Source of the DNA: Edaphobacter aggregans
GTDB taxonomy: Bacteria > Acidobacteriota > Terriglobia > Terriglobales > Acidobacteriaceae
Direction: 5' to 3'
NCBI RefSeq assembly: GCF_003945235.1
Contig: NZ_RSDW01000001.1
Coordinates: 5,160,001 to 5,192,000 of the forward strand
Length of the DNA stretch: 32,000 nt
Part shown: positions 8,759-13,153 of the stretch, in pieces
How the letters are laid out: each line of letters starts with the position of its first letter
How positions within the stretch are numbered: the first letter of the stretch is position 1
Program-made: the position numbers and the translations under genes
The notes under the pieces: generated by a model
Told to the model about the DNA's origin: nothing
Databases searched by the model: none
The model's input: only the letters and a program-made list of their open reading frames with translations

Positions 8759-10195
8759 CTAACAGCCTTTCCTGGATCGTTCCTGGATGGCTTTGTGGGC
8801 GGCGGCCCAGCCGAGTTTGTTGGCCTGGCGGGCGCGGCCGAGGGCCAGGGCTCCTGATGGGACGTCTTCGGTGATACAGCTTCCGGCGGCTACGTAGGAT
8901 CCGGACTCGACGGTGATTGGGGCAACTAGGGTGGAGTCGGAGCCGATGAAGACGTTGTCGCCGATGGTGGTGAGGTGCTTGTTGACGCCGTCGTAGTTGC
9001 AGGTGATGGCTCCGGCGCCGATGTTGGTTCCGGTGCCGATGACGGCGTCGCCGAGGTAGCTGAGGTGGTTGGCCTTGGAGCCCTTGCCGAGGGTGACTTT
9101 TTTGGTCTCGACGAAGTTGCCGACGTGGCAGTTTTCGCCGATGTTGCTGTCGGGACGGACGTGAGTGTAGGGGCCGATGAGCGCGCTGCTGGCGATGGTG
9201 GCGGAGTCGATGATGCAGCCGTTGCGGATGGTGACGTTGTCGCCGATGGTTGTGTTCTGGATGACGGAGTAGGAGCGGATGCGACAGTCGGAGCCGATGC
9301 GGGTGGCGCCGAGGAGTTGGACGTAGGGCTCAATGACGGTGTCGGGTTCGACGGTGACCTGCGCGTCGATGATGCAGGTTTCCGGGCGGAAGATGGTGAC
9401 CCCGGAGGCCATGAGGCGGCGGGCGGTGGCGAGGCGCATGGCGGCATCGAGGTGCATCATCTCGGCGATGGTGTTGGCTCCGAGGACTTCGTCGATGCTG
9501 TCAGCTTTGACGGCTACGACGCGTTCGCCGTCGGCTACGAGCATGGCGGCGACATCGGTGAGGTAGAACTCGCCGTGGGCGTTGTTGGTGTCGAGAGCGT
9601 CGAGTTTGGCGAAGAGCTTCGAGGTTTCGAAGCAGTAGATGCCGGAATTGATCTCGGGGGCTTTTAGCTGATTGGGCAGGAGGGATTTTTGTTCGACGAT
9701 GGCGGTGACTTCGGGGCCGTCGGGTGTGACGCGGATGACGCGGCCGTAGCCGGTGGGGTCTGCCGGGACGGCGGTGAGGATGGTCATGGCGGCGCGCTCG
9801 GCGAGGTGGAGGTCGCGGATGGCGGCGAGGGTTTCGGGACGGATGAGGGGGACGTCGCCGGAGAGGACGAGAAGATGCTCGGGGAGGGAAGCGCCGGTGA
9901 GGGCGAAGTCGGCCTTGAGCATCTGGAGGGCGTGGCCGGTGCCGCGCTGCTCGGCTTGCAGGACGAACTGGACGCCGGTTGGGGCGACGGCGGTGCGGAC
10001 GCGGTCGGCTTCGTGGCCGATGATGCAGTAGATGTGCTCGGCTGGGACGAGGGTTTTGGCGGCGGCGATGACGTGAAGAAGGAGGGCCTGGCCGCCGATC
10101 TCGTGGAGAACTTTGGGGCGCTTGCTCTTGAGGCGGGTGCCTTTGCCGGCGGCCATGATGGCGATGGCGAATCCTTTGGTGTCCATGTTGTCCAT
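8759..10195 (-). CDS. glmU: Bifunctional UDP-N-acetylglucosamine diphosphorylase / glucosamine-1-phosphate N-acetyltransferase
   Basis: The N-terminal nucleotidyltransferase motif is AAGKGTRLKSKRPKVLH. The C-terminal left-handed beta-helix has hexapeptide repeats (IGDNVTIRNGCII.., IGENCHVGNFVE.., IGTGTNIGAGAITCNYDG). Length is 478 aa. Confidence 0.95.
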   Translation of the reverse strand: MDNMDTKGFAIAIMAAGKGTRLKSKRPKVLHEIGGQALLLHVIAAAKTLVPAEHIYCIIGHEADRVRTAVAPTGVQFVLQAEQRGTGHALQMLKADFALTGASLPEHLLVLSGDVPLIRPETLAAIRDLHLAERAAMTILTAVPADPTGYGRVIRVTPDGPEVTAIVEQKSLLPNQLKAPEINSGIYCFETSKLFAKLDALDTNNAHGEFYLTDVAAMLVADGERVVAVKADSIDEVLGANTIAEMMHLDAAMRLATARRLMASGVTIFRPETCIIDAQVTVEPDTVIEPYVQLLGATRIGSDCRIRSYSVIQNTTIGDNVTIRNGCIIDSATIASSALIGPYTHVRPDSNIGENCHVGNFVETKKVTLGKGSKANHLSYLGDAVIGTGTNIGAGAITCNYDGVNKHLTTIGDNVFIGSDSTLVAPITVESGSYVAAGSCITEDVPSGALALGRARQANKLGWAAAHKAIQERSRKGC

Positions 10196-10343
10196 GAGGA
10201 TATGGTCTCACGGTGGGCGGGTCGGATGGCACACCTAGTGTTTCGACTGGGTTAGGAAGGCAGGTAGTGCTTTAGTCCGAATGATCTAGTCATGCGATAA
10301 GGACTGCAGGAACGTTGGTCATGTCGCTCTTCAAGGAAAACAA

Positions 10344-10769
10344 TTGATGAAGATAAAAATCGCATCTTTAACTGTGCTTATGTCCTCAGTTGTATCGGTT
10401 CTCTCCATGGGCCATGCAGCTTATGCCGCGGTTCGCATTGGAGGATCGTCTTTGCGCGCCAATGGGCAGGTTGCCGAGGGGTATCAATATAGCGGACCGT
10501 GCCCGGTTGACCTTAAGTTCGGCTGGGGAGTTATCGCCTCGTCACCCACGGCAGTGACCTATACGTTTTCCCGGAGCGATGGCGGGCATACTTCCTCGTC
10601 TCGGACGGTTGACTTATCGCAACCGAACCGCTCTGTGCCGATCTATGACGATTGGCGGCTTGGGGCGAACACGCCGCAGTTCAGAAGCTATAGGGGTTGG
10701 GTACAGATCGACATCCAGTCTCCGAATGCTGTTGCGCAGAAGATTCCGTTCACCATTCATTGCCAGTAG
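10344..10769 (+). CDS. Small secreted protein, hypothetical (two Cys, beta-rich)
   Basis: The signal peptide is MMKIKIASLTVLMSSVVSVLSMGHAAYA. The mature part is ~113 aa, with Cys at residue 53 of the precursor and at the penultimate position. A strong terminator lies 23 nt after the stop. The 5' end is noticeably AT-richer than neighbouring genes. Confidence 0.6.
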   Translation: MMKIKIASLTVLMSSVVSVLSMGHAAYAAVRIGGSSLRANGQVAEGYQYSGPCPVDLKFGWGVIASSPTAVTYTFSRSDGGHTSSSRTVDLSQPNRSVPIYDDWRLGANTPQFRSYRGWVQIDIQSPNAVAQKIPFTIHCQ

Positions 10770-10791
10770 TGGGGTATCGCGCAAAAAGCTA

Positions 10792-10823
10792 AGGGGCGAG
10801 CTCCCTTTCGAGATCTCGCCCCT
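10792..10823. terminator. Bidirectional intrinsic terminator
   Basis: A 9-bp GC-rich stem, AGGGGCGAG (10792-10800) / CTCGCCCCT (10815-10823), with an extra inner CTC/GAG pairing. A T-tract follows on both strands: + gctttccgattttt, - tagcttttt. Confidence 0.8.
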
Positions 10824-11003
10824 GCTTTCCGATTTTTCGAAGATCTGGTTCGGGATCCAGATCACACCGATCGTCACGTCGTAGTTTGTTCGGATCCTAC
10901 GAGCTTGCGCCCGCGCTCTCCTTACTCTTCCGTCATTCCATTCGCTGTAAGAGCTTTCTCGTGCCACCCATCCGCATCCAGTTTCCTGGATACTTCTGCG
11001 AGT

Positions 11004-11091
11004 TCCGTTCCCGGCTCTCTCGAGTTTCGTTGCCGATTCCCTTGAGCTCCGTTGTCGGTTGTCTGAGTCTCGTTGCCGATCCTCTTGATGG
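11004..11091. repeat. Tandem repeat, 4 units of 21-22 nt (a degenerate 5th at 11092-11113), with a higher-order ~43-nt period
   Basis: The units are tccgttcccggctctctcgagt / ttcgttgccgattcccttgagc / tccgttgtcggttgtctgagtc / tcgttgccgatcctcttgatgg. CCGTT/TCGTT cores start at 11005, 11027, 11049 and 11070. Units 2 and 4 share 21/24 nt (gagtttcgttgccgattcccttga vs gagtctcgttgccgatcctcttga). Confidence 0.8.
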
Positions 11092-11188
11092 CTCTTGTCT
11101 ACTCTCTCCTTCTGGAAGATCTCTCTTCCGTTGAGATGAATAGTACGCTTGATATTCGGGAATGCAAGTGGTTATAAGAGGCTTTTTA

Positions 11189-11218
11189 TGTGGAAATTAC
11201 GCGTGTTTTGTGGAAATT
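11189..11218. promoter_or_regulatory. Perfect 10-bp direct repeat TGTGGAAATT x2 at 20-bp spacing: candidate response-regulator (LytTR-type) box
   Basis: TGTGGAAATT occurs at 11189-11198 and 11209-11218, which reads AATTTCCACA on the - strand. The pair lies 18 nt beyond the stop of the LytTR gene. On the - strand, the proximal copy ends 12 nt upstream of a TATAAC hexamer. Confidence 0.4.
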
Positions 11219-11235
11219 CGACCTAAGTGAATGTG

Positions 11236-11988
11236 TCACGACGTTTGCGAGTTACTAACTCCCAAACGATTTTGTAGTTGCTTGCGATAACTCCGACTTA
11301 GTCGAAGTTTAGTTCCGTTTTCGAGCAGCACTTCATATTCGCCGTCTTCGTTGAGCTTTAGGCCACGGACGTGATTCATGTTGACGATGGTTGAACGGTG
11401 GATGCGGCAGAACGTCGCTGAGTCCAGGTCTTGCTCGAGTTCAGATATGCTGCGACGCAACATGTGTGTTCGCTGTCCGACGTGAAGGCAGGCGTAGTAG
11501 TCGGCGGCTTCGATCCAATCGATCTCGGAGGCTCGCAGGAACGAGACACGGCCGGCGCTCTTGATGGCGAGGCGTTCGAGTTTTTCTGGGAGATCTTTGC
11601 CGAGTTTGATTTTTTGTTTTGCACGGTCGAGGGCGAGATCGAATCGCGCGTTGTCGAATGGCTTCAAGAGGTAGTCGAGTGCTCCGGCTTCGAAGGCGCG
11701 TAGTGCGTATTGATCGTAGGCGGTTACGAAGACGATGGCTGGGGGGACATCTTTGCCAAGAAGTTCGAGTACGTCGAAGCCGTCGCACTCGGGCATCTGG
11801 ACGTCGAGGAAGACAAGGTCGGGTTTGGCGTTGCGGATTAGTGCAGGTGCGTCTACGCCGGAGCCGCATTCGGCTACGATTTCAATCTTCGGATCGAGGC
11901 GCAGGAGCACGGCGAGATTGCTTCGCGCGAGTGGTTCGTCGTCCACAATGACCGTGGTTATTTTGTCGGGTCGTTCTGATGCGGGCAC
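11236..11988 (-). CDS. Two-component response regulator, LytR/AlgR family (REC + LytTR DNA-binding domain)
   Basis: The REC domain is VIVDDEPLARSNL..DLVFLDVQMPECDGFDVL..VTAYDQYALRAFEAGALDYLLKP. The LytTR domain is ..IDWIEAADYYACLHVGQRTHMLRRSISELEQDLDSATFCRIHRSTIVN. Confidence 0.92.
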   Translation of the reverse strand: MPASERPDKITTVIVDDEPLARSNLAVLLRLDPKIEIVAECGSGVDAPALIRNAKPDLVFLDVQMPECDGFDVLELLGKDVPPAIVFVTAYDQYALRAFEAGALDYLLKPFDNARFDLALDRAKQKIKLGKDLPEKLERLAIKSAGRVSFLRASEIDWIEAADYYACLHVGQRTHMLRRSISELEQDLDSATFCRIHRSTIVNMNHVRGLKLNEDGEYEVLLENGTKLRLSRSYRKQLQNRLGVSNSQTS

Positions 11989-11992
11989 GAAA

Positions 11993-13084
11993 CTACTCCT
12001 TGAAGGGTACGGAGACGGAGACTTCTACACCGCCGGGGGCCTGGTTTTGCATGTTCAGTTTGAAGTCGTCTCCGTAGAGGCTTTGCAAGCGGGTTCGGAT
12101 GTTCGAGATTCCGATTCCGGTTTGGGTCTCATTGTTCGCGGGAAGGCCGGGGCCGTCGTTGTAAACGCTGAGGGTGAGCATGTCGTTGGAGCGAGACGCG
12201 AGGATGCGGACTGAGCCTCCCTGGGCTCGTTTTGCGATGCCGTGTTTGATGGCGTTTTCGACCATGGGTTGCAGGATGAGTGTCGGGACTTGGGCGAGAA
12301 GAAGGTCGTTGGGGACGTTCACGGTGCACTGGAGGCGCTCGACGAAGCGGGCTTTCTGGATTTCGAGATACTTCCGCGCGAACTCGAGTTCTTCGCCGAG
12401 GGGTACTTGTTGACGATTGGAATCTTCGAGGACGCGGCGCATGAAGTCGCTTAGCTCGACGATCATGGTTACGGCTGCGTCGGTTCTCTTTTCGCGGACG
12501 AGACCGGCGATGGAGTTGAGTGTGTTGAAGAGGAAGTGCGGCTCGATTTGTCTGCGGAGGGCGCTGAGTTGGGCCTTTGAGAGCTGCTCGTTGAGGCGCG
12601 CGGTCTCGGTTTGTTCGAGGGCGAGACGCTCGCGTGAGTCGAGCATGTGACTAGCCAGAAGGATCGTAATGTAGAGGACCAAGTACGAGAGAAGTCCGCT
12701 GTAGAACTTCTCCAAAAAGAGCCTTGAATAAGTTCCGGGCCCTGGCATGTTGGCGTATGGGTTCATCAACTTTTCCAGGGCGGCGGTCCATGCGGCGGAG
12801 ATGAGGCCAATGGCGGTGCAGGCGGCAAGATGCCTGATCCATCTTGAGATGGGTCTCCACTGTATGGGAGGGTAACGGCGACCGAGGCGAAGCACCGTCG
12901 GCGTCGCAAGTGCCCATGGCAGCCAGCCGATCAACAAGGCTATGAAGAGGCGTCCCCAGTTGTGGTGCATGCCTTCGGCGCGCATGACGAAGACGTTCTG
13001 CGTGGCATCGAACAGCCCGACGGCGGACCAGATGGCTGCAATCCAGAACCATTGTTGCGATTGCGCGCGTGTGTGCTTGTCCAT
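11993..13084 (-). CDS. Sensor histidine kinase, LytS/YehU-type (His_kinase PF06580-like + HATPase_c), multi-TM N-terminus
   Basis: Signature LRRQIEPHFLFNTLNSIAGLV; ATPase boxes LQPMVENAIKHG, VYNDGPGLP and GIGISNIRTRLQSLYG; four to five N-terminal hydrophobic helices. It ends 4 nt before the regulator start. Confidence 0.9.
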   Translation of the reverse strand: MDKHTRAQSQQWFWIAAIWSAVGLFDATQNVFVMRAEGMHHNWGRLFIALLIGWLPWALATPTVLRLGRRYPPIQWRPISRWIRHLAACTAIGLISAAWTAALEKLMNPYANMPGPGTYSRLFLEKFYSGLLSYLVLYITILLASHMLDSRERLALEQTETARLNEQLSKAQLSALRRQIEPHFLFNTLNSIAGLVREKRTDAAVTMIVELSDFMRRVLEDSNRQQVPLGEELEFARKYLEIQKARFVERLQCTVNVPNDLLLAQVPTLILQPMVENAIKHGIAKRAQGGSVRILASRSNDMLTLSVYNDGPGLPANNETQTGIGISNIRTRLQSLYGDDFKLNMQNQAPGGVEVSVSVPFKE

Positions 13085-13125
13085 AGGGAGAATCGTATTC
13101 TACGGCACTGGCTACGCGCCAAAAA

Positions 13126-13153
13126 TGCAGCGAATTGCCATCCAGGTGCAGCG
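13126..13153. promoter_or_regulatory. Direct repeat TGCAGCG x2 at 21-bp spacing in the divergent kinase / P460 promoter region
   Basis: TGCAGCGaA at 13126-13134 and TGCAGCGgA at 13147-13155. On the - strand these read TTCGCTGCA / TCCGCTGCA, pointing toward the kinase operon. The 21-bp phasing matches two helical turns. Confidence 0.3.

Follow-up and report, generated by a model that had tools for sequence, protein, structure and literature searches.

A probable structured RNA gene with an activator-type promoter downstream of a LytTR regulator gene in Edaphobacter aggregans

Introduction

In Clostridium perfringens, the LytTR regulator VirR drives an unlinked RNA of about 400 nucleotides (nt), VR-RNA, by way of imperfect direct repeats upstream of its promoter. 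PMC4847170 cites these repeats (ref. 7) and describes LytTR sites as having repeats of 9-11 nt and spacers of 11-13 nt; for AgrA the promoter-proximal repeat is centred near −60 (PMC4227749). The locus described here lies in a 32,000-nt stretch of Edaphobacter aggregans DNA (contig NZ_RSDW01000001.1, positions 5,160,001 to 5,192,000), hereafter the window, directly downstream of a LytTR response-regulator gene. The element in question runs from 11134 to 10783 on the − strand and is probably a gene in its own right for a structured RNA of a hitherto undescribed family, transcribed from an activator-type promoter.

The locus had been singled out in an earlier reading of the letters alone (the original prediction), which proposed a regulator-controlled RNA between the LytTR gene and a strong terminator and likened it to agr P3/RNAIII, with a CsrB/RsmZ-type sponge, a long 3' untranslated region (3'UTR) and a decayed gene as alternatives. 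As an observation this was largely right, the element being real, apart from an excess of GGA triplets and a TATAAC −10 hexamer, neither of which held. Its interpretation was half right: the activator-type RNA gene stands, and the roles of effector of the neighbouring regulator or of CsrB-like RNA probably do not.

Acidobacteria rank with the most abundant bacteria in soil. Two motifs from this group were found in Rfam, Acido-1 (RF01686) and Acido-Lenti-1 (RF01687), the former reported from Acidobacteria (PMC2864571); neither has an assigned function. A literature search returned no paper on regulatory RNAs in Acidobacteria, and searches by topic and by sequence strings returned no description of the RNA family reported here. 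A scan of the whole window with Rfam 15 (4227 models), a check that the original prediction had proposed, gave no match at the gathering score. Under permissive settings no credible match was found at E up to 10 (10700-11300) or at E up to 1 (12 family loci), the matches being chance ones to eukaryotic families only. The models for Acido-1, Acido-Lenti-1, RNAIII and CsrB/RsmX/RsmY/RsmZ did not match the RNA, which appears to represent an undescribed family.

Results

The RNA gene and its parts

The end of the LytTR gene at 11236 and the bidirectional hairpin at 10792-10823 are both present as originally described. Between them the − strand carries a discrete, structured, purine-rich non-coding unit, preceded by phased repeats and a weak promoter and ending at the terminator. 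From 5' to 3' the predicted RNA consists of UCAAC, P1, domain 1 (H2, H3, hairpin array and H6), domain 2, H12, UUCGAAAAAUCGGAAA and the terminator. Its 5' end is predicted to lie within about 4 nt of 11134 and its 3' end in the U-run at 10783-10787. The parts are as follows.

10783..11134, − strand: RNA gene, 352 nt, delimited by fold, family alignment and covariation, and as conserved as the flanking genes
11114..11129, − strand: hairpin P1, GGAAGA-GAGA-UCUUCC, GNRA loop, with single-stranded UCAAC on its 5' side
11101..11106, − strand: 5' strand of the long-range helix H2, the GAGAGU of the purine tract AGAAGGAGAGAG, pairing with 10949-10954 (GCUCUU) and closing domain 1
11005..11084, − strand: array of four units of about 22 nt, consensus about RGRAAYCGG-CAA-CGRRACUC, each able to form a GNRA-capped hairpin
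10974..10993, − strand: hairpin H6, of the CCAGG-AAAC-CUGG type, covarying
10864..10948, − strand: domain 2, in which helices H7-H11 are nested, with ACAGC/GUUGU as the closing helix and a GCAA-capped tip, covarying
10842..10863, − strand: hairpin H12, GAUCUGG-loop CCGAAC-CCAGAUC, with the conserved UUCGAAAAAUCGGAAA after it
10784..10831, − strand: intrinsic terminator (helix 13), stem at 10793-10822 and then UUAGCUUUUU, shared head-to-head with the convergent gene p141

The strand asymmetry noted at the outset holds, the − strand RNA being 64% purine (A115 G111 C77 U49), and the GGAAGA-GAGA-TCTTCC hairpin is found at 11114-11129. The 22-nt tandem repeat is likewise present (10999-11088) and corresponds to the hairpin array, which varies in copy number: four units in the window and in L083, about three in L086, two in L084, one in most members of 280-290 nt, and six to seven in the members of roughly 405 nt (L102, L133, L139, L155). 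A 17-nt duplication (GATTCAGGAGACTGGAT twice) was also seen at RNA positions of about 75-110 in L101 and L117, relative to their sister loci L087 and L109, and is a further case of local repeat expansion in domain 1.

Nearly every full-length copy ends 250-400 nt on in a hairpin GGGGCGAG..CYCGNAAGRG..CGCCCC and a U-run. This hairpin is retained in loci without p141 (L118 and all non-syntenic loci), so the terminator belongs to the RNA first of all.

Conservation and gene neighbourhoods

The most conserved block, at the 5' end of the RNA, was used as a 24-nt exact-match probe (TCAACGGAAGAGARATCTTCCAGA, − strand 11134-11111) and matched 64 soil metagenome contigs. These yielded 50 unique RNAs of 253-405 nt with homologous terminator ends. 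With a profile hidden Markov model (nhmmer), one copy was found in the window and none in 80 species-representative loci.

A search of one genome per species in GTDB with the regulator protein returned orthologous modules of cytochrome P460, kinase and regulator genes at ≤78% identity, none of which resembled the window in the spacer, p141 or the downstream GlmU. The first impression from these species representatives, that the block is not conserved, was overturned by closer relatives. A protein search returned many regulators at 80-94% identity, on contigs with the order regulator, spacer, (p141), GlmU, and in close relatives the spacer aligns end to end. Identity of the RNA to these close relatives is 83-90% (93-98% over the 5' 46 nt and 87-91% over the 3' 217 nt), compared with 80-91% for the five flanking genes.

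The regulator, kinase, p141 or GlmU gene lies near the RNA in the window's own clade only. Other clades have other neighbours, for example genes for an NHL-repeat-like protein or, on the opposite strand, an SRAP-like protein, and the fetched flanks of the family contigs hold no neighbour gene shared across clades. The RNA is regarded as a stand-alone gene because the cassette is kept in these differing neighbourhoods. The window's gene neighbours point to Terriglobia, such as Ca. Sulfotelmatobacter and metagenome-assembled genomes (MAGs) of Acidobacteriaceae, and the family is probably spread across the Terriglobia (Acidobacteriota).

Fold and covariation

The window RNA has a minimum free energy (MFE) of −133 kcal/mol with a z-score of −6.29 (none of 100 shuffles was as good), compared with a z-score of −1.04 for the complement, and the unconstrained MFE fold recovers the consensus structure. 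For an alignment of 32 diverse family members (A2), RNAalifold predicted 68 pairs, 26 with compensatory changes. A dubious outer helix between GAAG (alignment columns 23-26) and CUUU at the 3' end of the terminator was dropped, leaving 64 pairs in 13 helices.

In the 64-pair model, 96.4% of the 2047 cells are paired, as opposed to 31-50% for slid partners. Double changes occur in 26 of the 64 pairs (slid partners 4-13; shuffles 12.3±2.1, with none of 500 reaching 26) and in 106 cells (slid partners 7-21; shuffles about 29); unlike the shuffles, the slid-partner control takes phylogeny into account, and the two agree. The paired columns contain 235 G·U and only 17 A·C cells, which identifies the − strand of the window as the RNA strand.

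Helix H2 is 94% paired, with compensatory changes in two of its six pairs, and H12 is 99% paired, with such changes in five of seven. They are also found in 9 of the 19 pairs of helices 7-11, and at pair 152-159 of H6, 16 sequences have A-U and 13 have G-C. P1 is invariant by construction in the probe-selected set; in independently found loci it reads GGAGGA-GCGA-UCCUCC (L155, compensatory) or carries a GUGA loop (L151). When 18 further members, including the most divergent clades, were fitted by simple addition to the alignment, 43-62 of the 64 pairs were kept. An all-against-all column scan for pseudoknots produced no usable candidates, being too permissive for an alignment so rich in purines. 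A possible loop pairing joins CCGA in the H12 loop to a downstream UCGG, both invariant, so that no covariation signal is possible there.

Promoter and direct repeats

Four conserved elements precede the RNA.

11209..11217, − strand: distal copy of the direct repeat, ATTTCCACA, about −83 to −75 relative to the start of the RNA, a putative half-site for an activator
11189..11197, − strand: proximal direct repeat ATTTCCACA, about −63 to −55, with a period of 20 nt to the distal repeat
11162..11167, − strand: −35-like hexamer TTGCAT, 3/6 match to TTGACA, family consensus cTTGCAt, 16 nt before the −10 hexamer
11140..11145, − strand: hexamer TACTAT resembling a −10 element, with TAnnaT as family consensus, separated by 5 nt from the conserved 5' end of the RNA

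The perfect direct-repeat pair of the original prediction, GTGGAAATT at 11190 and 11210 of the + strand, is ATTTCCACA on the − strand, and the window contains no other mismatch-free copy. In 1.07 Mb of fetched loci the pair was found solely upstream of the RNA. With upstream sequences anchored on the probe, 42 unique promoters showed a fixed architecture in the order aTTTCCACA, 11 nt, ATTTCCACA, AAAAT, cTTGCAt, about 16 nt, TAnnaT, 5 nt, UCAAC. The −10 hexamers in the family are TATGCT, TACTAT, TATGAT, TATTGT and TATTAT. Fifty loci have a repeat period of 20 nt and six a period of 21 nt (spacer of 11 or 12 nt), and the proximal repeat begins at a constant 62-63 nt from the start of the RNA. 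Being 9 nt long, with a spacer of 11-12 nt and a proximal copy centred near −59, the repeats fit the pattern of LytTR operators (PMC4847170, PMC4227749).

TATAAC (11176-11171), initially taken for the −10 element, is not conserved even in close relatives, where TAGAAC, TACACC and CAGACC are found. The activator-type look itself was upheld by way of the conserved elements further downstream, TTGCAT at 11167-11162 and TACTAT at 11145-11140. A sigma-54 reading of CTTGCA was rejected by eye, as there is no GG at the −24 position. An activator acting on the RNA promoter is rather likely to exist, given the conserved repeats. A LytTR-type protein, probably other than the adjacent regulator, is a reasonable best guess for its family.

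In one clade (L089, L097, L103, L105, L114, L129, L130, L137, L146) the ATTTCCACA repeats are missing, an inverted repeat, GTGCAAAA-N(about 29)-TTTTGCAC, lies some 95 nt upstream of the RNA, and the −35/−10 pair also differs. There the RNA appears to be wired to another regulator.

The neighbouring regulator and its probable operator

The LytTR response-regulator gene (Response_reg and LytTR; 11236-11988, − strand) is preceded by a kinase gene (His_kinase/HATPase_c; 11993-13084), and the cytochrome P460 gene (13168-13821) is divergent from this operon. The 83-nt gap between the P460 and kinase genes holds a repeat of the module's own, YRCTGCA-N14-GCTGCAT, upstream of a TAGAAT/TACGAT element. 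In the window (13097-13152, − strand) it reads CCGCTGCAC-N12-TTCGCTGCAT, with GCTGCA at 13152-13147 and 13131-13126, a period of 21 nt, and TAGAAT at 13102-13097. The GCTGCA repeat is conserved wherever the P460-kinase-regulator module occurs, in Terriglobia as well as in gammaproteobacterial MAGs. This repeat bears no relation to ATTTCCACA, which is absent from the regulator's own promoter region. The conserved GCTGCA repeat is probably the real operator of the neighbouring regulator, and the layout suggests that the module regulates cytochrome P460.

The RNA directly follows the regulator gene in L151-153 and L155, of which the regulators are 88% and 84% identical to that of the window. L154 (regulator 86% identical) has no RNA; an acetyltransferase gene (L154:3247-3798), overlapping the regulator stop codon, takes the place of the RNA cassette, which indicates a recent rearrangement at the regulator/RNA junction. 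The pattern in L151-L155 makes the adjacency of regulator and RNA a trait of one shallow clade. With a different repeat of its own and no linkage to the RNA in other clades, the neighbour is an unlikely activator, and any protein that acts on the RNA promoter is very likely another one.

Other features of the locus

The 141-amino acid (aa) gene p141 lies at 10344-10769 on the + strand and is followed by the G+C-rich hairpin at 10792-10823. Its product has no Pfam family match and a signal-peptide-like N-terminus. Some close relatives have p141 and others do not; in the latter (L118 and the JGI contig with P0014) GlmU directly follows the RNA.

The final codons of the LytTR gene contain a 13-bp hairpin with one mismatch (11242-11268), part of which L086 retains, with compensating changes. 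The hairpin lacks a U-run on the − strand, and ATTTTGTAGTT follows it on the + strand; from this sequence it could be a terminator of antisense or convergent transcription.

Within the GlmU gene (window 8900-10250), long overlapping open reading frames (ORFs) in alternative frames were observed (for example 8926-9447 −, 8975-9667 + and 9501-10232 −). Their translations are of low complexity, rich in P/R/S/T/A or in G/D/A/V, and they look like artefacts of G+C composition and not genes. In L085 (4761-6274) the GlmU homologue is broken over several frames; it is intact in the near-identical L084, and the frameshift is probably an assembly or sequencing error and not biology.

Discussion

Proposed function of the RNA

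In the mechanism proposed for this stand-alone RNA gene, transcription of the RNA would depend on an activator that occupies both repeats (centres near −79 and −59). The neighbouring LytTR regulator would act instead on the GCTGCA repeats before its own operon and the divergent P460 gene. The RNA would act in trans via its fold, as a protein-binding scaffold or decoy of which the capacity scales with the hairpin array. This last step is the weakest of those proposed, and a fold-dependent protein-binding mode is put forward tentatively. Action in trans is suggested because there is neither a conserved neighbour nor a downstream ORF. A function that depends on the fold is favoured over a linear antisense seed because of the large size, the two closed multi-helix domains and the conserved junction nucleotides, and because the seemingly accessible purine tract is paired and the copy number of the array drifts freely.

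Several points weigh against this picture. Where regulators are 84-100% identical, the RNA nearly always comes directly after the LytTR gene with no terminator between, so that read-through or a local functional link is possible in that clade. The transcription start, the promoter and the activator are all inferred from conservation. A generic E. coli-style scan gave no promoter at the RNA 5' end, and the −35/−10 hexamers match the E. coli consensus, which may not be that of the acidobacterial sigma-A, at only 7 of 12 positions, although both are the expected look of a weak, activator-dependent promoter. One clade of 15 loci lacks the ATTTCCACA repeats and has a different upstream inverted repeat; this regulation is therefore not universal across the family. 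The collection was made with an exact probe, the 5' end being invariant in it by construction. Finally, the terminator, U-tail and A-rich tract fit a base-pairing mechanism equally well.

Alternative explanations

An RNA with its own inducible promoter, a U-tailed intrinsic terminator and an A-rich tract is typical of trans-acting small RNAs. The RNA could be an Hfq-type base-pairing small RNA that acts as an antisense through a single-stranded segment, either the 5' UCAAC or the A-rich tract. It is predicted to have all three of these properties, the conserved A-rich UUCGAAAAAUCGGAAA lying just upstream of the terminator, and a seed could lie within its near-invariant first 33 nt. With 253-405 nt, 13 covarying helices and two closed domains, however, it is far more structured than is typical, and the purine tract, although accessible in appearance, is base-paired within H2, with covariation. 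Seeds that target ribosome-binding sites are usually pyrimidine-rich, whereas this RNA is purine-rich. A base-pairing small RNA is a possibility, if a somewhat doubtful one.

In an agr P3/RNAIII-like circuit, the adjacent LytTR regulator would bind ATTTCCACA and drive the RNA as its effector. The geometry of the repeats at the RNA promoter is LytTR-like, and the RNA directly follows the regulator gene in every locus of 84-100% regulator identity except L154. However, most other contigs keep repeats, promoter and RNA with no response regulator within the fetched flanks, and the RNA cassette thus occurs in unrelated neighbourhoods. Conversely, the P460-kinase-regulator modules at ≤78% identity, plus the one at 86% (L154), are without the RNA. 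The module has its own repeat with a 21-nt period, YRCTGCA-N14-GCTGCAT, kept even in the gammaproteobacterial homologues, and the regulator's own promoter region does not contain ATTTCCACA. The link to the neighbour, central to the original prediction, is accordingly unlikely.

A CsrB/RsmZ-type sponge, titrating a CsrA-family protein by means of GGA motifs, had been suggested for the GGA density. The count of 15 GGA in about 290 nt was exact (291 nt), and the full 352-nt RNA has 17. Shuffling gave an expectation of 11.4 (mononucleotide) or 14.7±2.4 (dinucleotide; P = 0.22) for the full RNA, and the excess disappears because the purine-rich composition explains the count. A-N-GGA is mildly enriched (9 versus 4.7 expected, P about 0.03), and the array of variable copy number recalls CsrB and RsmZ. 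On the other hand, the loops of the array hairpins are GNRA (GCAA or GAAA) and not GGA, most of the conserved GGAs are inside covarying helices, and there was no match to Rfam CsrB, RsmY, RsmZ or RsmX even at E up to 10. This function is very improbable.

The last two readings are rejected. A long 3'UTR, or 3'UTR fragment, of the kinase/regulator operon without a promoter of its own would agree with the lack of a canonical terminator between the RNA and the end of the regulator gene at 11236 (on the − strand no U-run follows the 11242-11268 hairpin), but repeats, −35 and −10 are kept at a fixed distance from the RNA where the upstream gene differs or is on the opposite strand, which leaves little credit for it. 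A decayed or unrecognised protein gene, or a mobile or repeat DNA element without RNA function, is barely conceivable: the only ORFs within 10824-11235, of 82 aa (+, 10886-11134) and 117 aa (−, 10614-10967), do exist and 'hit' other loci in tblastn, but neither has a Pfam match, the 117-aa ORF crosses the terminator hairpin into the neighbouring gene, close relatives differ by indels of 1, 21 and 43 nt, none of the frames stays open across the homologues (only 1 of 50 has an antisense ORF of at least 60 aa that starts with ATG), long stop-free runs reflect the T-poor composition, covariation preserves base pairs and not codons, and the RNA is present in one copy per contig, with no terminal repeats and no copy in the viral and plasmid collections that were searched. 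The early statement that the block holds no believable ORF is borne out by the same facts.

Implications

The locus offers an RNA family with a supported structure, predicted ends, a sharp promoter and a candidate activator site. That site could lead to the regulator and hence to the signal, and the RNA could serve in searches for its partner. A hairpin array that varies in length is unusual and points to a dosage-like mechanism. Control of the adjacent RNA by the regulator is a tempting reading, but their adjacency probably reflects a chance gene order in one clade; the analysis points at the same time to the likely real operator of that regulator. As a wider and speculative proposal, doubtful as it stands, a LytTR-type (or similar tandem-repeat-binding) signalling pathway of the Terriglobia might have as its dedicated output a large RNA with a complex fold, of which the conserved three-dimensional core and the expandable GNRA array would capture a protein or another RNA. 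If true, this would be a functional counterpart of RNAIII and VR-RNA outside the Firmicutes and a new class of regulatory RNA.

Comparison with known systems

The promoter of RNAIII in the agr system of Staphylococcus aureus (P3) is likewise weak, with two phased repeats, the proximal one near −60 (PMC4227749), and RNAIII is also a multi-helix RNA of several hundred nt. In contrast, there is no homology in sequence or structure (no Rfam match), the RNA described here has no embedded peptide ORF and belongs to a different phylum. It is also usually not beside any regulator, and the neighbour's own promoter repeat differs from that of the RNA. With VirR and VR-RNA, too, the RNA gene need not adjoin the regulator gene; homology is again lacking, the repeat sequence is unrelated and regulator binding is only putative here.

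The YpdB operator of E. coli at yhjX, GGCATTTCAT-N11-GGCATTTCAT, similarly consists of direct repeats with an 11-nt spacer. Several members of the RNA family read GCATTTCCACA and have the core (G)CATTTC in common with the YpdB site. The target of YpdB is the mRNA of a transporter and not an RNA gene. The resemblance is a lead only.

The sponges CsrB, RsmZ and CrcZ also have an inducible promoter and a terminator of their own, and hairpin modules that vary in number among relatives. In the present RNA, the module loops are GNRA instead of GGA or A-rich, and long-range helices and a second closed domain are added. As in orphan structured non-coding RNAs such as Acido-1, Acido-Lenti-1, raiA and OLE, which came from comparative genomics, a conserved and covarying multi-helix fold, known only from sequence, is found without an assigned function. 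The present RNA differs from most orphan structured motifs in having a clearly conserved activator-type promoter.

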